Source: Alphaproteobacteria bacterium (GTDB lineage: Bacteria > Pseudomonadota > Alphaproteobacteria > Micavibrionales > Micavibrionaceae). Taken from it: 64,000 nt of DNA. How positions within the stretch are numbered: position 1 is the stretch's first letter; every line of letters starts with the position of its first letter. Location of the stretch: NCBI GenBank assembly GCA_021775955.1, contig JAJFGU010000016.1, positions 4,721-68,720 of the forward strand, written 5' to 3'. Both the position numbers and the translations under genes were made by a program. Positions 3,063 to 58,608 of the stretch are shown in pieces. The notes below the pieces were generated by a model. The model was not told the origin of the DNA. It ran no database searches and saw only the letters and a program-made list of their open reading frames with translations.

Positions 3063-5144
3063 TCAAATCGCCTTCACGATATGCTTCGCATTCAGCCCGG
3101 CCTGTTCGTATTGCTCGAGTGGGATGTCGTGATCCTGGAAAATATCGGGCAGGTGCATGGTTTTGACGCGGCAGGAGCCGAGCAGGTTTTCATTGTTCAT
3201 GAATTCGAGCACGAAGGAGCCGAACCCGCCGCGCGAGCCTTCCTCTATCGTGATGAGGGTTTCGTGGTTTTTCGCGAGGTCTTTGATGAGCTCTTCATCC
3301 AGCGGTTTGGCAAAACGCGCATCGGCGACCGTGACGGAGATATTTTTCTGCTCCAGAATTTTTGCGGCGAGGAGGGCTTCACTTAAACGCGCGCCGTAAG
3401 AGAGGATGGCAACGTCGCCAGAGATGTCATTTCGAGCGGAGCGAGAAATCTCACGATTATCGGGAGATCCCTCCGCCTGCGGCGTTCGGGATGACAGAGA
3501 GGTGGAATGAACAATCCGCCCCTTGCCGATCTCTAAAATTTCACCGATCTCCGGAATCTCCACGCCCGTGCCTTCACCGCGCGGGTATCGGAATGCAATC
3601 GGGCCGTCATTATACGCCGCCGCGGTGGCGACCATATGGGTGAGCTCGGCCTCGTCACTGGCAGCCATCAGCACAAAATTCGGCAGGCACCCCAAATACG
3701 CGACATCAAACGCGCCGGCATGGGTCTGGCCGTCGGCACCAACCAGCCCCGCGCGATCAAGCGCAAAACGCACGGGTAGATTTTGAATGGCCACATCATG
3801 AACGATCTGATCATAGGCGCGCTGTAAAAACGTAGAGTAAATCGTGGCGAAGGGTTTGAACCCTTCCGTGGCCAGACCGGCGGCAAAGGTCACGGCGTGC
3901 TGCTCGGCGATACCGACATCAAAACTTCTCTCGGGAAATTCTTCGGCGAACAAATCCATCCCCGTGCCGTCGGGCATCGCGGCGGTGATACCGATAATCT
4001 TTTCGTCCTTGCGCGCTTCTTTAATCAGGCTTTGCGCGTAGACTTTGGTATAGCTGGGCGCGCCGGGTGCGCTTTTGGCCTGATCGCCGGTGATGACATC
4101 GAATTTCTTGACGCCATGCATTTTACAGGCGGCGTTCTCGGCGGGCGCGTAGCCCTTGCCCTTTTTGGTGATGGTATGAATGAGGACGGGGCCTTCGTGG
4201 TGCGCCTCTTTGACATTGCGCAGGATGGGCAAAAGATCGTCAAGGTTATGGCCGTCAACCGGGCCGATATAATAAAAGCCCATATCTTCAAACAGCGTGC
4301 CGGAGCTGCCCTGTTCGGGGGTGAAGGTCATGCGCGCGGTTTCCTCGGCGCGTTTGGCGGCAAAGCGGATCGGCTTTGGCAGATATTCGGTGATGCGCTT
4401 GCCGATCTCGCGCGCGGACATATAGGGTTTGGAGGACACAAGGCGCGCGAGGTAGCTTGCCAGCGCGCCGACCGGCGGGGCGATCGACATTTCATTGTCG
4501 TTGAGGATGACGATGAGGCGCGACTTCATTGCGCCCGCGTTGTTCATCGCCTCGTATGCCATGCCCGCGCTCATCGCGCCGTCACCGATAACGCAGATGA
4601 TGTTGTTGTCATTATCGGACAGGTCGCGCGCCACCGCCATGCCGAGCCCGGCAGAAACGGATGTGGAGCTATGCGCCGCGCCGAAGGGATCAAATTCGCT
4701 CTCGCTGCGCTTGGTGAAACCGGACAGCCCGCCACCCTGACGGAGTGTGTGGATGCGATCGCGGCGGCCGGTGAGAATTTTATGCGGGTAGCATTGATGC
4801 CCGACATCCCAGATCAGCTTGTCTTCGGGCGTGTTGAAAATCGCGTGAATGGCGACGGTCAGCTCGACCACGCCAAGGCCCGCGCCGAGATGCCCGCCGG
4901 TTTTGGACACCGCGTTGATGGTCTCAGAGCGCAGCTCACCGGCGAGAATTTTTAGCTCATCGTCTTCGAGATGTTTGAGATCGGCGGGGGTGGTTACCAG
5001 ATCGAGCAGGGGGGTTTTGCTGGTTTTTTTGTCCAGGGCTTTCTTGTTGTTTTCCCCGCGCAAGCGGGGATCTTCCGTGGAAGCGTCCCTAAGGTCCCCG
5101 CCTTCGCGGGGAAGACAGTCTTGTGTTTTCTGTGCCTGGGTCAT
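3063..5144 (-). CDS. dxs: 1-deoxy-D-xylulose-5-phosphate synthase, carrying two repeat-derived in-frame segments
   Basis: Dxs hallmarks are present: GHxGx[63 protein letters not shown]. The extra N-terminal ~30 aa and an internal ~27-aa insert both coincide with repeats. Confidence 0.95.
3426..3495. repeat. 70-bp imperfect palindrome GTCATTTCGAG...CGGGATGAC (family B, short form) inside dxs
   Basis: Direct reading. Arms GTCATTTCGAGCGGAGCGAGAAATCTC and GAGATCCCTCCGCCTGCGGCGTTCGGGATGAC flank an 11-nt centre. A related copy lies at 53791-53866. Confidence 0.85.
5050..5115. repeat. Cluster of GC hairpins (family A): CCCCGC-gcaa-GCGGGG, CTTCC-gtg-GAAG, CCCCGC-cttc-GCGGGG
   Basis: Direct reading at 5054-5069, 5072-5084 and 5096-5111. 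The same hairpin type occurs at 21467-21527 and 50608-50650. It lies within the first ~32 codons of the dxs ORF. Confidence 0.85.
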
Positions 5145-5157
5145 GGGAAGTATTTAT

Positions 5158-5184
5158 AACCACGAAGACACGAAGGCACAAAGG
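5158..5184 (-). repeat. Phased word-triplet arm facing the dxs start (gene-sense CTTTGTGc CTTCGTGt CTTCGTGGTT)
   Basis: Plus strand reads AACCACGAAGACACGAAGGCACAAAGG. Period is 8 bp. It is followed (gene-sense) by ATAAATACTTCCC and then ATG at 5144, with no SD. Confidence 0.8.
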
Positions 5185-5230
5185 TTTTTAGCTAATATTA
5201 TAAAAATATGGAAACTTTAAGTTTTTTTTG

Positions 5231-5716
5231 TCATGAACGCCTGGAGAAGCTACCAAAGTAGACCATACAGAATATGGTGCCGGCTAATGCGCCGTATGCA
5301 ATAGTCCAAAGTATCCTTTTAAATAAGACGATATAGCCACAAGACGTTCGTACGTTATTTTCAATGATTTGGCATCCTTGCCCATAAAAACTGTAAGTGC
5401 TGTCTTCTGGGCCTCCCCAGGGTATGGATGTGATTTCAAGAATAAGTTCAGGTATTAAAGAAATAAGGATAGCAAAGGGTATTACATATAAAGGCCTTAG
5501 GAGGTTGTAGGATTTTAAGACGAAGTATAAAGGTGCTGCAAAAACTATAATCAATACCCATGAGACAATTAGGTTACTTACAAAAAAAAGAACACTGCGT
5601 TTGATAAATTCAGGATCAAAAGTCCATAAAAAACAGGGAAGAACAGGAGCTAATAAAAATGCCAAAAATAGCCGGACTCTCGTCCCCTTATTAGCACCTT
5701 CCTGTTGTTGCGCCAT
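5231..5716 (-). CDS. AT-rich polytopic membrane protein, unknown function
   Basis: 161-aa ORF with about 4 hydrophobic helices (LFLAFLLAPVLPCFLW, VSWVLIIVFAAPLYFVL, YVIPFAILISLIPELIL, WTIAYGALAGTIFCMVYF). It is visibly lower in GC than its neighbours and starts 11 nt after the ispA stop. Confidence 0.5.
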   Translation of the reverse strand: MAQQQEGANKGTRVRLFLAFLLAPVLPCFLWTFDPEFIKRSVLFFVSNLIVSWVLIIVFAAPLYFVLKSYNLLRPLYVIPFAILISLIPELILEITSIPWGGPEDSTYSFYGQGCQIIENNVRTSCGYIVLFKRILWTIAYGALAGTIFCMVYFGSFSRRS

Positions 5717-6685: not shown

Positions 6686-6766
6686 AACGCAAAGTTAGAC
6701 AAAGTTAAACAAAGTTTCATTTTTTCTTTGTGCTCACTTTGTCTGACTTTGTTTTACTTTGCGGTT
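6686..6766. repeat. Inverted pair of phased arms built from the word CAAAGT/ACTTTG (3 units + 4 units, 9-nt centre)
   Basis: Left arm 6686-6716 is AACGCAAAGTTAGACAAAGTTAAACAAAGTT. Right arm 6726-6766 is CTTTGTGCTCACTTTGTCTGACTTTGTTTTACTTTGCGGTT. Period is 10 bp. Confidence 0.85.
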
Positions 6767-6839
6767 TAAAAATAATCTGCATTTATCAGCTTTATCTGCT
6801 TGCCCGCCATAGCTTTAGCGACGGCGGGTGGTTTCATTC

Positions 6840-7228: not shown

Positions 7229-7693
7229 ATGAAATTAAGATTGATTTTTGTCAGACATGCGACATGGGAAGTTCTATCTAGGGGTAAAGGACTGGATGAG
7301 CCTGGGAGGGAATCTATCAGAAGCCTTGCCGCCAAGCTTAAGCAAGATCTAAAAATTTTCCCGAACAAGATTTTTGTGGGCATACAACCTAGATCAATTG
7401 AAAGCGCAATAATACTGTCTGAGGAGTTTGAGTTAGGGGAGGATCCTGAGCCCATGATCCAGCTGGATGAAGGTCATGGCGGACAGTTTGTAAAATTCCA
7501 TATGAAGAAGTTACCCGATGACCTGAAAACGGTCTTATGCGTTTCTCATGCAAATACTATTAGTAATGAGGCTCAAGCCCTAGGTAGAGAAAATGGTGTT
7601 AATTTAAAAAATGGGGCTGCCTTGATAGTGGAGTTTGATGGAGAAAATTGGTCAGAAGCGAACAATCCGAGATATCAGATAGTAGAGCCATAA
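7229..7693 (+). CDS. Histidine phosphatase superfamily protein (SixA-like)
   Basis: 154 aa. The N-terminal LIFVRHA (RHG-type catalytic motif) and a later CVSHANTI (SH motif) resemble SixA-type phosphohistidine phosphatases. The region is AT-rich. Confidence 0.5.
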   Translation: MKLRLIFVRHATWEVLSRGKGLDEPGRESIRSLAAKLKQDLKIFPNKIFVGIQPRSIESAIILSEEFELGEDPEPMIQLDEGHGGQFVKFHMKKLPDDLKTVLCVSHANTISNEAQALGRENGVNLKNGAALIVEFDGENWSEANNPRYQIVEP

Positions 7694-8299: not shown

Positions 8300-9055
8300 T
8301 TAAGGATTGAACGGGGCGGAGAGAATATCAATTGGCCCGGAGGTTGATCCCGGCACCTTCACCGGTTCAATCGGCGGCGGTATTTCGGGCTCGTCCTTAA
8401 ATGGCGACTTGAAAGAGAACGGGTCTGTTTCCGGATGCGCGACGGCTTTAACCGCTGCGATTTTCTTGCGGTTATAGGTCAGCTGCTCATTGCTGAGCTG
8501 GAACCCGACCATCACGGTATAGTGTGCCCCTTCCGATTCATGTTTTACCGGAATGATATGGCGTAGCGATTCATAATAAGTGTGGCGATCTTCCCCGTGC
8601 TCATAGGTGATCGAGGCGGCGAAAACCTCTTTGGCCAGAATATCTCCGCCCGGTTCGGTAATGGCCACAAAGAAGGGATAGCTGAAAAACGGCATGTCGC
8701 CGGATTGCGCTCTTCCGTTCGGGCCAAGCTGTCCTGCAAAAGCCAGTTTGAGGTCGACCATGACGCTTTTGGATTTGTACTTACACGAGCTTTCGATCCG
8801 GTTGATATCAACCTGCGAGACCAGGTTGCTGGCATCGGCGTTGTCGTAATCGGCAAACTCATTGAGCGTGGCCAGTTCTTCGACGATATGAACCTGCGGG
8901 CAGGCTCCGTGCAAGACATTGCCATCGCCGGTTAAAGATTGAAAATCCGGCAGGCCAAGATTGTTGATATCCGCCTGCAACCCATCCACCGTTTCACAGG
9001 CAGGCAGGGCAAGAAGGGCTATAACCAACGCAGTAAGGCAATGTGATCTTTTCAT
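8300..9055 (-). CDS. Lipoprotein, unknown function
   Basis: Signal peptide with lipobox LLALPAC. 251 aa. It stops 11 nt upstream of the SIS gene start, so an operon is likely. Confidence 0.6.
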   Translation of the reverse strand: MKRSHCLTALVIALLALPACETVDGLQADINNLGLPDFQSLTGDGNVLHGACPQVHIVEELATLNEFADYDNADASNLVSQVDINRIESSCKYKSKSVMVDLKLAFAGQLGPNGRAQSGDMPFFSYPFFVAITEPGGDILAKEVFAASITYEHGEDRHTYYESLRHIIPVKHESEGAHYTVMVGFQLSNEQLTYNRKKIAAVKAVAHPETDPFSFKSPFKDEPEIPPPIEPVKVPGSTSGPIDILSAPFNP

Positions 9056-10154: not shown

Positions 10155-10919
10155 ATGAAACTCACTTCAGAAGAATTTTTAGCGCAAGGCAACAAGGCGA
10201 TTACCCTGATCGGCATGTCCGGTGCGGGCAAGAGCTATTTATCCGACAAGCTAGAAGAATGGGGCTGGCACAATTATTCCTGCGATTACCTGATCGGCAC
10301 AAAATACCTGAAGGGTCTTGTCGATGGCAAGGCAGACCGGGTGAATGATCCCATGAGCCTGCTCTCTGAATTTGTCGGGAAAATCGGCGACCCGGAAAAA
10401 GGAGGTCTGGCCCGCGAGGAGTTCAAGCGCCGCCAGCAATTATACTACGATGCTGAATGTGAGGCCCTGCGCGATACGCTTCCGGCTCTAGATGAAAGCG
10501 GCGGGCAGCAAAAAAGCTTCGTCAACGATTCCGCCGGCAGCCTGTGCGAGATCGAAGATAAAAAGCTGATTGCTTCTATCGGTGAAAAGACCCTGTTCGT
10601 GTATCTGAAGATTGGACAGGAAAATTATCGGGAATTACTGCGCCGCGCCATTGAATATCCCAAGCCGCTATACTTCCCGCCGAATTTTTTGCGCGAGCGG
10701 CTGGCGCATTACATGAAGGATCTTGATGTCGAGAATGTGGAGGAGGTCGACCCGGATGGGTTTTTGCGCTGGGTGTTTCCTCATCTGTTCGAAACACGGC
10801 TGCCGAAATATCAGGGGCTTGCCGATGAGTACGGGGTGAGCGTGAATATGTCTGAGCTTAAGGACGTCGCAAGTGAAGATGATTTTATTAATATTGTGGC
10901 CCGGGCGCTTGATGAATAG
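10155..10919 (+). CDS. P-loop NTPase, small-molecule-kinase-like
   Basis: Walker A motif [11 protein letters not shown] near the N-terminus. 254 aa. The ATG directly abuts the ispH stop (TAAATG). Confidence 0.45.
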
Positions 10920-11504: not shown

Positions 11505-11936
11505 ATGATCAAGCAAACAGAAAACATTATCCTTCCTCTGGAATCCGAGACAGTTTCACAGGGAGCCGATAAAGAAAAAATCGAGGGAATAGTCCACTCG
11601 CGATTTATGAAACATCTGCGCCATGTACCAAACAGCCGAATGGAGATCAAAATTTTGTCCTCCATCCAGTTCACCGCAGACATGCTTGATCACAGTGATG
11701 CCCATGTGGCCAAAGTACTGGTCGATATGGGGCTGCGCGCACCGCGCATGGCTTTCCCGGTTGAGTTTCTGGATTTTGCCGATTCCTGCCTGATGCGCTC
11801 GGGCTGGGAAGTTGGCGGGCCGAGCCAGGCGCTCATTGAATTAAACGAGCATTGGGGCCGCATCGGCGAAGACAAATTCGCCGGGTTCAAACGGCAATAC
11901 TCTCTGCTCGATGATGGTGTCTACGCTAGCGGTTAA
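11505..11936 (+). CDS. Hypothetical protein
   Basis: 143-aa ORF with a GGGAGAG SD-like sequence 4 nt upstream. I recognise no motif. The 3' end overlaps the PBP gene end by 11 nt. Confidence 0.4.
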   Translation: MIKQTENIILPLESETVSQGADKEKIEGIVHSRFMKHLRHVPNSRMEIKILSSIQFTADMLDHSDAHVAKVLVDMGLRAPRMAFPVEFLDFADSCLMRSGWEVGGPSQALIELNEHWGRIGEDKFAGFKRQYSLLDDGVYASG

Positions 11937-13917: not shown

Positions 13918-13922
13918 ATAAA
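13895..13922 (+). promoter_or_regulatory. Candidate sigma70-type promoter for the DUF218-like gene
   Basis: TTGACA (13895-13900), a 16-nt spacer, then TATAAA (13917-13922), 26 nt upstream of the ATG at 13948. Confidence 0.4.
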
Positions 13923-13947
13923 ACTACCCCCGCAAAGGGGCTTACGC

Positions 13948-19287: not shown

Positions 19288-19386
19288 ACGCCATGCAGTA
19301 GATTGAAATCAATAACAAAACCGTGTAGATCGCGCAAGCCGCATAATCCGTTGCGGTGCGATAAGAAATTATGTCAGGGTGGGCCC

Positions 19387-20035: not shown

Positions 20036-20446
20036 TTAGCCGTAAGTATGTGCGTTGATCTGTACCTGAGCTTCCGCAGCATCTTGAAATAGCTGGTAGG
20101 CAGCGCTGCCAGGCCTGATGCTCATATGTATAGCTCCAGATTCAAAAGTTTCTTGTTCTATATCGATGCGTCTATCAGAGGCTGTACTGATCTTGCCAGC
20201 AATTTGTCTTGTACGTATTGCCCAATCTTCATTTGATTCTTGTCCATGGCGGAATACGTACAAATCAAAGCCATAGCTTTCGCTTTTGGAGACATGCCCC
20301 GTATTGATATGTGAGCTTATACATTGGTGGTTTTTACTTGTTCTTTCTTCCAGCTCATTCTGCAATGCGCCATCGGCTGTAGCAATCCTCTCAGGCGACG
20401 GATCTTCACTAAAACATTCTTGTGTTAGTTTTGTAAGAGCTTTCAT
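20036..20446 (-). CDS. Hypothetical protein (AT-rich ORFan)
   Basis: 136-aa ORF with no recognisable motif. Its stop lies 4 nt from the convergent lipB stop. Confidence 0.4.
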   Translation of the reverse strand: MKALTKLTQECFSEDPSPERIATADGALQNELEERTSKNHQCISSHINTGHVSKSESYGFDLYVFRHGQESNEDWAIRTRQIAGKISTASDRRIDIEQETFESGAIHMSIRPGSAAYQLFQDAAEAQVQINAHTYG

Positions 20447-21420: not shown

Positions 21421-21569
21421 AACCGCGAATGGACACGAATACACACGAATTTTTTCTTTTTGCTTTCCCTGCGAAAGCAGGGATATTTAAAAACAAACAC
21501 AACAAACAGATCCCCGCCTACGCGGGGAAAGCACTAATTATTTGTGTTCATTCGTGTTTATTCGTGGTT
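21421..21569. repeat. Dyad-symmetric cassette: outward phased arms (word TTCGTG) around two GC tetraloop hairpins
   Basis: Left arm 21421-21450 is AACCGCGAATGGACACGAATACACACGAAT. Hairpins are CCCTGC-gaaa-GCAGGG (21467-21482) and CCCCGC-ctac-GCGGGG (21512-21527). Right arm 21541-21569 is TTTGTGTTCATTCGTGTTTATTCGTGGTT. Confidence 0.9.
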
Positions 21570-21591
21570 CTTTTTGCTTTATGTTATTCCG

Positions 21592-22865: not shown

Positions 22866-23414
22866 TTAATGTTCGAAATGCGGCACCTGGTATTCCAGAC
22901 CGGGAAGAGGTTCGTCCCGGATAATATCACGATAAAATGAATGATCTAATTTGCAGCGCAGCGCATCATAAAAACTGGCAGAGGCTCCTATATCTTGGCT
23001 TAAAAAGGTGTGTAGAAAATTCTTTTTATCATAGGGGATGTAATAGGAGCCATAAACATTTAGGGGAATAGCACCAACATGCATAGCCTCATATGTGTTG
23101 TTTTCAATCAGGTCAAAACGAATATACAAATCAGGGGACTTACCAAGGCTGCTTATCCATAGGGTGTATTCTCCTGTGATGTTTTGTCCGCCGATGATGT
23201 ATTGTTTGCCGCCAGTGGGTTTCAGTTCCGGGAAGGGCGCTTGCAATTGCCATTCATAAGGATCGCCAAGACCTATTGAACACCTTCTGACAGGCTCATT
23301 ATAGCTGCGCACTGCGCTATATACGAATGCTTTGGTTTGCGGCTCAACCGGCGGGTCCATGACGCTACGCGGATCGAAAGCTACATGTGTGATAATGGCG
23401 GGGTTTTCGGGCAT
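22866..23414 (-). CDS. Hypothetical protein (AT-rich ORFan)
   Basis: 182-aa ORF with no signal peptide and no motif recognised. Its stop lies 5 nt from the convergent serS stop. Confidence 0.45.
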   Translation of the reverse strand: MPENPAIITHVAFDPRSVMDPPVEPQTKAFVYSAVRSYNEPVRRCSIGLGDPYEWQLQAPFPELKPTGGKQYIIGGQNITGEYTLWISSLGKSPDLYIRFDLIENNTYEAMHVGAIPLNVYGSYYIPYDKKNFLHTFLSQDIGASASFYDALRCKLDHSFYRDIIRDEPLPGLEYQVPHFEH

Positions 23415-33814: not shown

Positions 33815-33865
33815 AACGGTTCTCCTTGGGTAGCTCTTCTTGCAAAAATTATTGAAAGGTTTTTT

Positions 33866-34045
33866 ACCACAGATAAACACAGATAAATACAGATTTTTGT
33901 AACGAAGATACGAAGTAACGAGGAAATATAAATAAAACTTCGGATCTTCGAAACTTCGTTACATATTAAATATTTAAATCTTCTTTTTTATTATCTGTGT
34001 CTATCCGTGTTCATCTGTGGTTTTTAAATTTTTTAATTTGTGGTT
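33866..34045. repeat. Nested cassette: outer phased arms (word ATCTGTG) enclosing an inner inverted pair of arms (word CTTCG), plus an extra GTGGTT box
   Basis: Outer left arm 33866-33894 is ACCACAGATAAACACAGATAAATACAGAT. Inner left 33899-33923 is GTAACGAAGATACGAAGTAACGAGG. Inner right 33936-33962 is AACTTCGGATCTTCGAAACTTCGTTAC. Outer right 33993-34022 is ATCTGTGTCTATCCGTGTTCATCTGTGGTT. A second GTGGTT lies at 34040-34045. Confidence 0.9.
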
Positions 34046-39068: not shown

Positions 39069-39094
39069 AGCCATGAAGACGCCAAGACACCAAG
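39069..39094 (-). repeat. Degenerate phased word-triplet arm facing the trmFO start (gene-sense CTTGGTGt CTTGGCGt CTTCATGGCT)
   Basis: Plus strand reads AGCCATGAAGACGCCAAGACACCAAG, with an 8-bp period. It is followed (gene-sense) by ATAAACGCCC and the ATG at 39058, with no SD. Confidence 0.7.
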
Positions 39095-46881: not shown

Positions 46882-46892
46882 AAGCCTTTTTA

Positions 46893-46920
46893 ACCACCAA
46901 GAACACCAAGGTCACCAAGA
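46893..46920 (-). repeat. Phased word-triplet arm facing the mutS start (gene-sense TCTTGGTGa CCTTGGTGt TCTTGGTGGTT)
   Basis: Plus strand reads AACCACCAAGAACACCAAGGTCACCAAGA, with a 9-bp period. It is followed (gene-sense) by AAAAAGGCTT and the ATG at 46881, with no SD. Confidence 0.85.
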
Positions 46921-48977: not shown

Positions 48978-48994
48978 GACATTTATATAAAGCA

Positions 48995-49032
48995 AAAGCC
49001 CCGCCTTTTCCACATGGAACAGACGGGGCTTT
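48995..49032 (-). terminator. Possible stem-loop terminator after the acidic-repeat gene
   Basis: A 9-bp stem AAAGCCCCG / CGGGGCTTT with a long 20-nt loop. On the minus strand it is followed by TGCTTTATATAAAT. The long loop makes this weak. Confidence 0.25.
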
Positions 49033-49060
49033 GTTAAAACTTTAGTTTAAGAAACAGTTC

Positions 49061-49800: not shown

Positions 49801-50550
49801 CTAGGGCTTAATTCCAGAGTGAATGGCACAAATTCCGGCAGAAAGGTTTGTAAAACCGGCGGTTTCCAGTCCTGCAGCCTTCATACGATTGGCCAGGTCT
49901 TTTTGTTTGGGGAATTTGCGGATGCTCTCGACCAAATATTGATAGCTATCCTTGTCTTTTGCAATGATTTCACCGATTTGCGGGATAATCTTAAATGAAA
50001 ACAGATCATAAGCTTTTGCTAGAAGAGGTTCTTCTACATGACTGAATTCAAGACAGAAAAACCGCCCACCGGGTTTAAGCACCCGCGCAGCCTCTTTTAG
50101 GGCTGTGTCTATATGGGTGACGTTTCTAAGGCCGAAGGCGATGGTATACACATCAAAGGAATTATCCGGAAAGGGCAGGGTTTCGGCGTTTCCGGTGATC
50201 CACTCAAACCCGTCGAGCCAGGCTTTGTCCGTCGCGCGGTCACGCCCGACATCCAGCATTTGCTGGTTTAGGTCACAAATTGTGATCTCAGCATCCGGCG
50301 CTTTCTTCTTGATACGAAAGGCAATATCGCCTGTGCCGCCGGCCACATCGAGATATTTGAGGTTGCCACGCGGCCTTATCATCCGCACCAGCCGGTCCTT
50401 CCAGAGGCGATGAATGCCGCCGGACATCAGATCGTTCATGAGGTCATAGTTATCGGCAACGGAATCAAAGACCCCGCGCACAGCCTGCGTTTTTTCATCG
50501 GGGGAGACGTGTTTCTCGCCGAACCATTCTTTTTCAGGGTTTGCGCTCAT
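49801..50550 (-). CDS. ubiE: Demethylmenaquinone/ubiquinone C-methyltransferase
   Basis: VF..VA..YDLMND.MS.G.HR.WK, DVAGGTGD, and FGLRN. Confidence 0.95.
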   Translation of the reverse strand: MSANPEKEWFGEKHVSPDEKTQAVRGVFDSVADNYDLMNDLMSGGIHRLWKDRLVRMIRPRGNLKYLDVAGGTGDIAFRIKKKAPDAEITICDLNQQMLDVGRDRATDKAWLDGFEWITGNAETLPFPDNSFDVYTIAFGLRNVTHIDTALKEAARVLKPGGRFFCLEFSHVEEPLLAKAYDLFSFKIIPQIGEIIAKDKDSYQYLVESIRKFPKQKDLANRMKAAGLETAGFTNLSAGICAIHSGIKP

Positions 50551-50561
50551 AAGGCTTTATA

Positions 50562-50700
50562 AACCACAGATAGACACAGATAAACACGGATTATTCTTTT
50601 CTGTTTTCCCCGCGTAAGCGGGGATCTAGTAAGATTCCTGCTTTCGCAGGAAAAGCAGCGCTACATTTTTATCTGTGTAAATTTGTGTCCATCTGTGGTT
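50562..50700. repeat. Dyad-symmetric cassette: outward phased arms (word ATCTGTG) around two GC tetraloop hairpins
   Basis: Left arm 50562-50590 is AACCACAGATAGACACAGATAAACACGGA. Hairpins are CCCCGC-gtaa-GCGGGG (50608-50623) and CCTGC-tttc-GCAGG (50637-50650). Right arm 50671-50700 is ATCTGTGTAAATTTGTGTCCATCTGTGGTT. Confidence 0.9.
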
Positions 50701-50711
50701 AAAACAACTTC

Positions 50712-52253
50712 ATGAAACTTATCAAAGCCATGGCAACGGTGGCGGGGCTGACGGGGCTCTCGCGCATCGCAGGATTTATCCGTGATATCATGACGGCGGC
50801 CATTTTGGGCGCGGGGCCGGTGGCCGACGCGTTCTTTGTCGCGCTTAAATTACCCAATTTCTTCCGCCGGGTGACGGCAGAAGGCGCGTTCAGCGTGTCT
50901 TTCGTGCCGCTTTATTCTGAAGCGCTCGAAAAGGAAGGCAAAGAAGAAGCCAACAACTTCACCCTCAATGCATTTTATATAATGCTTTATGGGTTGGGAG
51001 CGACTAGTCTTCTGGCGCTCTGGGCGATGCCATGGGTGCTTTACGCCGTTGCGCCGGGTTTTATTGGCGATGAAGTGCGCTACGATTTGGCGGTGGAGAT
51101 GGCGCGCATCACCTTTCCTTATTTGCTGTTCATGTCGCTGACGGCCTTGCTCGGCGGGGTGTTGAATGCGCTGGATAAGTTCGCGCCGTTTGCCTTTGCC
51201 CCGGTGCTGTTCAACGTGACTTTAATCGCCGCGCTGCTGATGAGCGATATGGCGCAGACGGCTGGTCATGCCATGGCCTGGGGGGTATTGGTGGCTGGCG
51301 CGCTGCAATTTACCTGGCTGGTTTTTAACGCGCGCAAAGCCGGGGTGCGTTTACGGTTCAAAAGACCCGTTTTTGATGTGAAGATCAAACGGCTCTTTAA
51401 GCTGATGGGGCCGGGGGTCATTGGCGCCGGGGTGATGCATATCAATCTCTTCGCCGACCTTATTATAGCGTCATTTTTGGCAACCGGGTCAATTTCGTAT
51501 CTGTATTATGCCGATCGTTTGAACCAGCTGCCCCTCGGCATGGTCGGGATTGCGGTTGGCACGGCGCTGCTTCCTATGCTCTCGCGCACTTTGGCCGCAA
51601 AAAAGACGGATGAAGCGCGTGACTTGTTCAACCGGGCCTTAGAGTATTGCTTGTTGCTGGCGCTGCCTGCAGCGCTGGCACTGGCGATTATCCCGCTGCC
51701 GCTGATAACGATTTTGTTCGAGCGCGGTGAGTTTTCGCAGGAGGACAGCTTGCAAACCGCGCTGGTGTTGATGGCCTATGCGATCGGGCTGCCCGCCTAT
51801 ATTACGGTTAAGGTATTTTCGACCGCGCACTGGGCCCGCCAGGATACAAAAACACCGGTGAAGATTGCCGTGGCCGCGACGGTGACCAATATTGTGCTGA
51901 GTTTAATCCTAATCTGGTATATGGGCGTGGTCGGGATTGCGCTGGCCACCGGACTGACGGGCTGGATGCAGTTTTTTGCGCATATCCAGGCGCTTAAAGA
52001 CCATGAGGCGGCGCGCTTCGATACGCAGTTCAAAGGGAACATACCGAAGATCATTGCTTCTACTTGTGTGATGGGGCTGGCACTTTATGGTGCGTCTCAG
52101 ATGCTTGAGGGCTGGATATACAGTGGCGGCGTGCAACAGATCGCTGCGCTTTTGGCGCTTGTCCTTGGCGGGGTGAGCGTTTACGCTGTGTGCGTTCTGG
52201 CAACTGGAGTGATTAAGCTTCAGGACGTAAAGAGATATTTGGTTAAGGGTTAG
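50712..52253 (+). CDS. murJ: Lipid II flippase MurJ
   Basis: SRI.GF.RD, AF.VA..LPN.FRR..AEGAF, 14-TM class, 513 aa. Confidence 0.95.
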
Positions 52254-58550: not shown

Positions 58551-58608
58551 GAGCGCGAATATAGCGTATAAAAGGCTGAAATTCATAGAAAGAAAAAGGA
58601 TATAGAAA

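Follow-up and report, generated by a model that had tools for sequence, protein, structure and literature searches.

Phased word arrays between ubiE and murJ of a Micavibrio-like bacterium as candidate protein-binding sites at putative leaderless promoters

The divergent spacer between ubiE and murJ (50551-50711, 161 bp) lies in a 64,000-nt stretch of contig JAJFGU010000016.1, referred to below as the window, which belongs to a Micavibrio-like genome of ~51% GC and not to Caulobacter. The spacer appears to be a composite of two promoters that consist of a -10 box only and of one inverted-repeat element placed between them. Each arm of this element is made up of three short words repeated at a constant pitch, and the arms may represent phased sites for a putative DNA-binding protein at positions -14 to -42 of leaderless promoters, a reading which seems quite possible to us, if still somewhat short of probable.

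The spacer is bounded by the open reading frame (ORF) 49801..50550 on the minus strand (249 aa, Pfam Ubie_methyltran), whose start codon occupies 50548..50550 and is printed as CAT on the plus strand, and by ORF 50712..52253 on the plus strand (Pfam MurJ), which starts at 50712..50714. Direct reading agreed throughout with the layout of arms, two hairpins and start codons given by the first-pass annotation. The left arm (50562..50591, minus strand) points toward ubiE and consists of the words ATCCGTGT, ATCTGTGT and ATCTGTGG followed by TT, at a 10-bp pitch; its printed letters are AACCACAGATAGACACAGATAAACACGGAT, which can be split into AACCACAGAT-A-GACACAGAT-AA-ACACGGAT. The right arm (50671..50700, plus strand, printed as ATCTGTGTAAATTTGTGTCCATCTGTGGTT) reads ATCTGTGT-AA-ATTTGTGT-CC-ATCTGTGG-TT toward murJ, and the same register is found at the related loci L008, L018 and L047. 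The word consensus of arms with a 10-bp pitch is ATYYGYGK, 8 bp in length, the outermost word ending in GTGGTT and pointing outward. The words are direct repeats with 0-2 free bases between them, their variants at the shorter pitches (8 and 9 bp) being CTTYGTG and CTTGGTG; the bases separating the words differ between the ubiE-side and the murJ-side arm. A repeat search delimited the inverted repeat as 45 nt with 76% complementarity (50547-50591 and 50671-50715), extending from start codon to start codon. At the outer ends of the arms are two -10-like hexamers, TATAAA (50556..50561, minus strand) 5 nt before the ubiE ATG and TAAAAC (50700..50705, plus strand) 6 nt before that of murJ. The gap between GTGGTT and ATG is 11 nt on both sides, and neither gene is preceded by a Shine-Dalgarno sequence.

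A scan of 50300-50950 for sigma-70 -35/-10 pairs, with a TTGACA-like hexamer placed 16-18 bp before a TATAAT-like one, returned no site, and by reading of the sequence no TTG is present at the -35 position in arms with 9- and 10-bp pitch. Meanwhile, TATAAA-N5-ATG at ubiE and TAAAAC-N6-ATG at murJ show the -10 placement, without a Shine-Dalgarno sequence, by which leaderless genes are recognised. Among 626 crude gene starts at Micavibrio-like loci the hexamer TA[AT]AA[ACT] is most frequent at -12/-11 relative to the ATG, where it was counted 21 and 13 times over a background of ~4-5, and TAAAAC-N6-8-ATG is kept upstream of murJ in many relatives, arm-bearing or armless. The two boxes would set the start of transcription at or next to the A of the ATG and give rise to leaderless mRNAs; leaderless starts driven by a -10 box alone are probably a trait of this lineage, independent of the arms. 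Literature searches on promoters, leaderless mRNAs and transcription start sites of Micavibrio found nothing relevant. Relative to the start so placed, the window arm occupies ~-14 to -42, with its last word fused to the -10 box and the GYG of that word at ~-17 to -15.

Similar arms recur along the window. The pattern GTG-N7-GTG-N7-GTGGTT occurs four times, against 0.00 expected from 100 dinucleotide-preserving shuffles, and the earlier description of three words ending in GTG, set at a 10-bp period, fused to GTGGTT and lacking a Shine-Dalgarno sequence was read again at both arms. A relaxed scan for three words [AC]T[CT][CTG]G[CT]G[GT] at an equal pitch of 8-11 bp, in which the -10 box and the ATG were ignored, yielded 16 matches (2.4 in shuffles), which merge to 11 arms, all 11 of them intergenic. 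The phased-word arms of the window are real and far beyond chance. Ten of the 11 point to a gene start, the remaining one (6737-6766, plus strand) to the 3' end of xseB.

Outward dyads are found in four window spacers. Besides that between ubiE and murJ, a second full cassette (21421..21569, no strand) separates an FGase-family gene from serS, with ATTCGTGT three times on each side and the same hairpin doublet. The third dyad (33865..34022, no strand), between sodB and a squalene/phytoene-synthase gene, has outer arms with ATCTGTGT and a nested inner pair, and the fourth (6687..6766, no strand), composed of ACTTTG words, lies in a tandem spacer at the start of an ispA-like gene and the 3' end of xseB. 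Single arms, all on the minus strand, precede dxs (5160..5185, three CTTYGTG words and GTT), trmFO (39069..39094, CTTGGTGT CTTGGCGT CTTCATGG) and mutS (46892..46919, three CTTGGTG words and GTT). The pitch is 8 bp at dxs and trmFO, 9 bp at mutS, and 10 bp at the ispA-like gene, the FGase-family gene, serS, sodB, the squalene/phytoene-synthase gene, ubiE and murJ. Hence the statement that the same grammar recurs at other gene starts holds for dxs, the FGase-family gene, serS, sodB, the synthase gene, trmFO and mutS.

The last word of every window arm runs directly into G(G/C)T(T) and an A/T-rich hexamer, an A/T-rich tract precedes the arm, and the register relative to the -10 box is constant across pitches of 8, 9 and 10 bp. 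The distance of 10-13 nt from GGTT to ATG, previously counted at seven arms, was found at seven to eight, with a correction at serS: the ATG at 21581, 11 nt after GTGGTT, is out of frame, and the true start is 21592, since Pfam Seryl_tRNA_N aligns from residue 1. The serS arm is therefore placed ~11 bp (one helical turn) farther upstream, before TATGTT-N6-ATG, and the longest serS ORF begins at a GTG within the arm (21544). The sodB arm shows the same fusion (GTGGTAAAAAAC), followed by a 45-nt leader with the Shine-Dalgarno sequence AAGGAGA, so that the arm is neither a translation signal nor tied to leaderless translation.

Some peculiarities of these arms should be mentioned separately. They mislead gene callers by providing spurious ORF starts, such as the serS GTG at 21544, and peptides such as ICVHLWF and IRVHPWL; peptides resembling these two occupy the ends of spurious ORFs on metagenome contigs. 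The nested inner arms of the sodB/synthase spacer (33902-33925 and 33935-33958, CTTCG words, 8-bp pitch) are each followed by TTACA(A/T)A, and the nesting of inner and outer pairs suggests tandem promoters or a double array. The xseB-facing arm (6737-6835 with its downstream region, plus strand) has ACTTTG words followed by GCGGTTTAAAAAT, and ~40 nt past it there is a hairpin CCCGCC...GGCGGG with a T-rich tail on the plus strand; arm and hairpin together could specify a short antisense or small RNA.

The locus was also compared with its counterparts in related genomes, in which MurJ is 48-74% identical (27% in one outlier) and which are metagenome-assembled genomes labelled Micavibrio, Alphaproteobacteria or Bdellovibrionales; NCBI taxonomy places Micavibrio within Bdellovibrionota. 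The arms found between ubiE and murJ, or beside murJ, consist of ATTYGYG at a pitch of 10 in L008, L018 and L047, of CTTCGYG at a pitch of 8 in L051 and L024, of CTCTGCG at a pitch of 9 in L031 and of AACTTTG at a pitch of 11 in L035, and further relatives have more degenerate forms. The word and the pitch are always common to both arms of one spacer. The window, L008, L018 and L047 share 64-68% identity in MurJ and 37-52% at fourfold-type third positions, which indicates synonymous saturation. All four nevertheless have a three-word arm of 10-bp pitch ending in GGTT 11-14 nt from the murJ ATG, and all 12 words have A, T, G and G at positions 1, 2, 5 and 7, with C or T at the Y positions. The 11-14 nt between GGTT and ATG have diverged among the same four genomes. 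As far as comparison of sequences can tell, this pattern is the signature of purifying selection on the words, since words and register are kept in spite of saturated synonymous sites and a diverged adjacent stretch. The arms of Micavibrio-like genomes are placed at promoters, where their register relative to the -10 box is constant and where selection keeps them; nearly all convergent spacers in these genomes are below 11 bp.

In L024, L047 and L035 murJ has retained a single arm although ubiE is no longer its neighbour, and in L035 the unlinked ubiE and murJ arms carry the same AACTTTG word. These observations suggest a specificity at the level of the genome that would act in trans. Other relatives are armless: at least 12 ubiE-murJ spacers of 37-48 bp, and others of up to 60 bp, contain two back-to-back -10-like boxes, compared with 101-281 bp in arm-bearing spacers, where the arm element sits exactly between both -10-like boxes. 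The arm would thus be dispensable for expression, because the spacers of 37-60 bp have the boxes without it.

According to the mechanism which we consider here, each arm would offer three sites on one face of the helix to a sequence-specific DNA-binding protein, i.e. six per dyad, and since the last word is fused to the -10 box, the bound protein would cover ~-14 to -42 of both promoters. Such a protein would control ubiE and murJ jointly, as well as about one in six genes of the window. Its position fits occlusion best, the alternative being an activator that substitutes for the missing -35 contact. Of the two ideas put forward in the first-pass annotation, a phased site array on one DNA face is the better fitting one in view of the 8-bp word, the free 2-bp spacer, the 10-bp pitch and the conserved murJ words. 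Recognition of duplex DNA by a protein is also preferred to a selected hairpin because of the conservation at the level of words, the free spacers, the frequency of single arms and the fact that outward dyads outnumber inward ones tenfold.

The arm is a member of a cross-phylum family and is not private to the Micavibrio-like lineage. Metagenomes were scanned with ATYYGYGK-NN-ATYYGYGK-NN-ATYYGYGGT, and the counts given in this and the next paragraph are those among the matches listed (at least 120 contigs with at least 145 arms); genes were called by ORF heuristics (length and GC content at third codon positions), so distances to starts are approximate. The arm-bearing contigs range from 35 to 69% GC, and their markers include the ADOP permease, typical of Acidobacteria, and a heme protein of the Planctomycetes-Verrucomicrobia-Chlamydiae (PVC) type. 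By BLAST, plasmids of Skermanella mucosa, Bacteroides finegoldii, Dolichospermum and Sphaerospermopsis, the last two belonging to Nostocales, were seen to carry dyads or arms; one of the two dyad variants used against plasmids gave no match at all, and a search of 5,426 E. coli genomes and 50,697 phage records gave no match to the dyads. Rfam, at its gathering score, reported only tRNAs in the window and hence no family for the arm, and on 20 arm-bearing contigs only one tRNA and one group II intron fragment. Literature searches with strings gave no match to 17-mers of the arm and unrelated matches only, e.g. PCR primers, to 11-mers. No name was found for the family in Rfam or the searchable literature, although it may have been described under another one; the first-pass annotation could not match it to a named repeat family either.

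Intergenic location was observed for 133 of 145 arms. The base after GGT is T in 89%; [A/C][A/C]A comes next, and then a T-rich stretch at +5 to +10 after GGTT; on high-GC contigs the arm is followed by TCCA or TTCA and not by a -10 box. An outward partner at a gap of 3-213 bp is present for 68 of 136 arms and an inward one for 6 of 139, while 48 of 136 have no partner. In 13 strict metagenome dyads the Y/K word positions of partner arms agree in 91% (62% in random pairs) and the 2-bp spacers in 54% (40% in random pairs), and the centres of the dyads, 3 to 213 bp long, are mutually unrelated. The expected bias of wider copies toward gene starts was not borne out, as 54 arms face the 5' end of the next gene and 54 its 3' end. 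Convergent spacers are occupied at a frequency of 0.32, compared with 0.19-0.20 for others. Of 17 cases of paired arms in tandem spacers, 10 lie 0-18 nt past the stop codon of the upstream gene, and single arms in tandem spacers run along the genes in nine cases and against them in eight. A second array, of 8- or 9-bp pitch, often comes after an arm with a 10-bp pitch (L074, L075, L081, L125, L150 and L171), as in the sodB spacer. Two contigs have more elaborate arrangements: outward dyads follow one another every ~95 bp in a long array in L146 (2150-2518), and runs of ATTCGTGTCC units are interleaved with arrays of 8- or 9-bp pitch in L081 (3440-3760).

A broader proposal, which as a whole we regard as rather unlikely, is that the outward dyad of three phased 8-bp words ending in GYGGTT is the site of a shared putative DNA-binding system that marks the borders of transcription units, and that in the compact genomes of predatory Micavibrio it came to serve as a global switch by recruitment to the -14 to -42 region of housekeeping promoters of the leaderless kind. 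The same proposal would assign the system to Micavibrio-like alphaproteobacteria, Acidobacteria-type and PVC-type soil bacteria, Bacteroides, Azospirillaceae and Nostocales, and not to E. coli.

Several observations weigh against phased protein-binding sites. The pitch varies between 8, 9, 10 and 11 bp from arm to arm, which is awkward for a rigid oligomer bound to one face, and several word variants coexist within one genome. In other phyla no promoter-orientation bias is seen and paired arms hug stop codons among the matches listed; the general role of the family may be unrelated to initiation. The arms of a spacer share word and pitch, and the cassette is copied at FGase/serS and partly in the dxs 5' region, a pattern expected of a dispersed self-copying repeat or of palindrome homogenisation. 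The promoters would work without an arm, given the armless ubiE-murJ spacers of 37-60 bp in relatives, and the binding protein itself is a putative one.

Part of these observations would be accounted for by a selfish or neutral palindromic repeat, similar to repetitive extragenic palindromic (REP)/REPIN sequences or to miniature inverted-repeat transposable elements (MITEs), inserted between working back-to-back leaderless promoters and either harmless or acting as a mere spacer. Conservation of the words would then mean that only intact arms are copied, or that copies or arms homogenise each other. We consider this explanation unlikely, in spite of the presence or absence of the element at the same locus (armless spacers of 37-60 bp, arm-bearing ones of 101-281 bp) and of the common word and pitch of both arms of a spacer. 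Deletion of 50562-50700 would leave a spacer of 22 bp, and natural divergent spacers of 12, 22 and 30 bp exist in the window; the cassette recurs at FGase/serS and its remnant is found in frame in the dxs 5' region; and among the matches listed from other phyla the arms occupy any type of spacer and abut both starts and stops. However, no target-site duplication was detected in 56 dyads (direct flank identity 0.14-0.29, inverted 0.45 at 2 nt), and no transposase or other recurring neighbour was seen among 568 ORFs on the 120 arm-bearing contigs listed, whole genomes not being searched. A classical MITE is disfavoured by these results and by the unrelated centres. Moreover, single arms are common (48 of 136 without a partner among the matches listed), the register and consensus of the murJ arm are kept across saturated lineages while the adjacent 11-14 nt diverge, and 10 of the 11 window arms are directed at a gene start, seven to eight of them at a GGTT-to-ATG distance of 10-13 nt.

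The centre of the dyad is a REP/REPIN-like hairpin family and a passenger. It is formed by a doublet of GC-rich units in inverted orientation, recognised by folding (50601..50658, no strand). Unit 1 (50607..50624, no strand) is T-CCCCGC-GTAA-GCGGGG-A, with CCCCGC-GTAA-GCGGGG at 50608-50623, and unit 2 (50635..50652, no strand) is TT-CCTGC-TTTC-GCAGG-AA, with CCTGC-TTTC-GCAGG at 50637-50650. The two GC tetraloop hairpins described earlier are located where they were said to be, but they are not separate units: they are inverted copies of one unit, because the centre folds as one long hairpin (-32.3 kcal/mol, z = -5.6 for the central 80 nt as a single strand). The unit T-CCCYGC-N4-GCRGGG-A occurs six times in the window, in three doublets, of which one lies between ubiE and murJ, one between the FGase-family gene and serS and one inside the dxs ORF at its 5' end; doublet and flanks are alignable across all three regions. 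Similar doublets, without arms, are found in L018 and L020, and in the ten units together (six from the window, four from L018 and L020) 98.6% of cells are paired, one stem position being CG, UA, AU or GC. As expected of REP/REPIN sequences, the unit is a short, repeated, extragenic GC-rich palindrome with kept pairing, with one doublet located inside the dxs 5' ORF. The tags GTAG and CGTC are absent from the unit ends, which read GATC/TTTC...GGGGA, and CTAC is seen solely in one loop. No RAYT gene was seen in Pfam scans of 28 window ORFs, the only search made for it. The doublet is an optional passenger, since the ubiE-murJ spacer of relatives has other centres or none.

The dxs 5' copy retains two reverse-complement arm words beside the doublet. 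The first ~40 codons of the dxs ORF (693 aa; 5010-5144, minus strand) are a remnant of the cassette, with hairpin units at 5053-5070 and 5095-5112, and there is no in-frame ATG, GTG or TTG between the ATG (5144) and the conserved TPLLD motif, hence the repeat element seems to be translated as an N-terminal extension of ~40 aa before TPLLD. Another hairpin-forming repeat family, GTCATTGCGAG...CGCGGCAATCC, adjoins the GC hairpin doublets in L018 (12250-12330) and L020 (4830-4870).

It has also been proposed that the element is a portable bidirectional promoter giving leaderless mRNAs. In this case the arm would be a promoter element read by the RNA polymerase holoenzyme itself, namely an extended -10, a spacer or a UP-like substitute for the -35 box, which we find quite improbable. 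The -10-like box 5-8 nt from the ATG and the recurrence of the whole cassette (FGase/serS and the dxs remnant) agree with the proposal, which is thus supported in part. The -10 consensus of Caulobacter is GnTAnAWC, and the last word provides a G at -14 that adjoins such a box; an A/T-rich tract precedes every window arm, the spacer has no other promoter candidate, and word 1 of the dxs arm (8-bp pitch) sets TTGTGC exactly 17 bp from TATAAA. In contrast, arms with 9- and 10-bp pitch have no word at a usable -35 distance, and armless relatives retain the same -10 box and the same spacing to the ATG. The 54:54 orientation, the use of convergent spacers and the abutment to stop codons among the matches listed, where 3' ends are met as often as 5' ends and high-GC contigs continue with TCCA/TTCA, do not suit a promoter either, nor does the sodB leader with its Shine-Dalgarno sequence. 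The arm is not intrinsically a promoter, because among the matches listed arms of other phyla show no bias toward gene starts.

That the dyad acts as a hairpin of RNA or single-stranded DNA, i.e. as a bidirectional terminator, an insulator, a stabiliser of mRNA 3' ends or a Rho-loading site, which would block stray or antisense transcripts entering the neighbouring gene, is highly improbable in our opinion. The position of paired arms close behind the preceding stop codon (0-18 nt past it in 10 of 17 tandem cases) and the highest occupancy of convergent spacers (0.32 compared with 0.19-0.20), both among the matches listed, would be in line with such a role, as would the T-rich flank at +5 to +10 after GGTT and the very stable folding of the centre. 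All word mismatches between the ubiE and murJ arms are moreover G:T, which form wobble pairs in RNA of the plus strand. However, complementarity between the 2-bp spacers of partner arms hardly exceeds the chance level, and among the matches listed one third of the arms are partnerless and the inward dyad, equally stable, is about ten times rarer. The terminator scan was empty inside 50551-50711, where neither central hairpin has a T tail on either strand, and divergent genes flank the dyad, leaving no sense transcript to terminate.

Other candidates were rejected. As a substitute for the Shine-Dalgarno sequence, GUGGUU would pair with GAUCAC of 16S rRNA through two G:U pairs, too far from the AUG, and the sodB leader has AAGGAGA of its own; mimicry of a -35 box by the words fits only the dxs arm of 8-bp pitch and not pitches of 9 or 10. 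Of the sites of CtrA, LexA, PhoB, TorR, OxyR, IHF, CreB, the PIP-box, CsrA (on reverse-complement RNA), Chi and the uptake sequences USS/DUS, compared by their consensus sequences, none fits all variants and pitches, and apparent matches to such sites fall mostly on unconserved spacer bases. An array of DnaA boxes (9-mers TTATCCACA, reverse complement TGTGGATAA, ~2 bp apart) matches the last word and its flank by eye in 7-8 of 9 positions (TGTGGTTAA) and the inner words in 6-7 of 9, and is ruled out because pitches of 8 and 9 bp cannot hold 9-mers.

The surroundings of the spacer offer some further observations. The genome is very compact, with divergent spacers of 12, 22 and 30 bp (19288-19299, 58587-58608 and 13918-13947) and with 9 of 12 convergent spacers of the window being of 10 bp or less or overlapping; owing to this compactness the promoters of divergent neighbours would have to overlap each other or the adjacent coding sequence. 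Upstream of coaBC (48978-49060), a terminator-like hairpin GCCCCG...CGGGGC and its T run pass directly into TATAAA/TATATA, 5-7 nt from the ATG, and this layout of hairpin and box is conserved in L009, L010, L016, L018, L024, L029, L033 and L040. The tail of a terminator appears to double here as a leaderless promoter. Eight sizeable ORFs of the window, one of them of 894 aa, have no Pfam match at E <= 0.001: 139-2823, 5231-5716, 8300-9055, 20036-20446 and 22866-23414 on the minus strand, and 7229-7693, 10155-10919 and 11505-11936 on the plus strand.

If phased protein-binding sites are indeed what the arms represent, about one window gene in six would be under one cis-element, including murJ, ubiE, dxs, ispA, serS, mutS, trmFO and sodB, which would be a sign of a global regulator in an obligate predator that switches between growth and attack phases. 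The word grammar occurs in at least four or five phyla and would be one of two things, a regulatory or architectural DNA signal of wide distribution or a repeat family conserved to an unusual degree; both alternatives are directly testable since cultured carriers exist (Bacteroides finegoldii, Skermanella mucosa and Dolichospermum). This spread makes the element more interesting than the single locus implied and brings it close to both operator arrays and extragenic repeats.

With the leaderless promoters of Caulobacter, actinobacteria and Deinococcus that consist of a -10 box only, the ubiE-murJ spacer shares the -10 box 5-8 nt from the ATG, the lack of a Shine-Dalgarno sequence and the lack of a conserved -35 box; to our knowledge, no triple-word array fused to a -10 box is present in these groups. 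The central hairpins resemble REP, BIME and REPIN sequences in being short, repeated (six units), arranged in inverted pairs as in a REPIN and subject to compensatory stem changes, and the arms do so in being high-copy and extragenic. According to PMC3733652, two REP superfamilies are defined by the tags GTAG or CGTC. No such end tag is present in the central hairpins, the arms are direct repeats and not a simple palindrome, and REP sequences are species-specific, whereas the arm word is common to several phyla. Correia elements of Neisseria are intergenic MITEs of ~100-160 bp with terminal inverted repeats, which can lie directly against genes and provide -10-like ends. The ubiE-murJ element, too, is short and non-coding and has terminal inverted repeats (45 nt, 76%), but the arms have no target-site duplication or conserved centre, are often single and cross phyla.

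Similar geometries are met among operators. Those of the OmpR/PhoB family (the Pho box, HLR1 of cyanobacterial RpaB and the TorR boxes) consist of non-palindromic words of 7-10 bp, arranged head-to-tail at a pitch of 10-11 bp, and often replace the -35 box; HLR1 is an 8-nt repeat with two free bases, exactly the geometry of the arm. The arms differ from them in the sequence of the words, in the overlap of the third word with the extended -10 region, in the outward dyads, in the very high copy number and in positions off promoters in other phyla. The MraZ protein, in turn, is nearly universal in bacteria, and its E. coli operator, reportedly described by Eraso in 2014, is said to comprise three TGGGN repeats with 5-nt spacers, i.e. 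a 10-bp pitch. In PMC8475190, citing Fisunov 2016, the MraZ box of Mollicutes is given as AAAGTG[T/G], and MraZ boxes normally form one cluster per genome, at mraZ (PMC8475190). When E. coli MraZ was used as the query of a tblastn search, neither the window nor any of the other loci searched yielded an mraZ gene. MraZ boxes and arms are alike in forming series of direct repeats with GTG[T/G], three or more at a 10-bp pitch as in the arms of that pitch here; in contrast to the MraZ boxes, the arms number at least 11 in 64 kb, stand at unrelated genes, form outward dyads, vary in pitch from 8 to 11 bp and in other phyla also occupy 3' ends.

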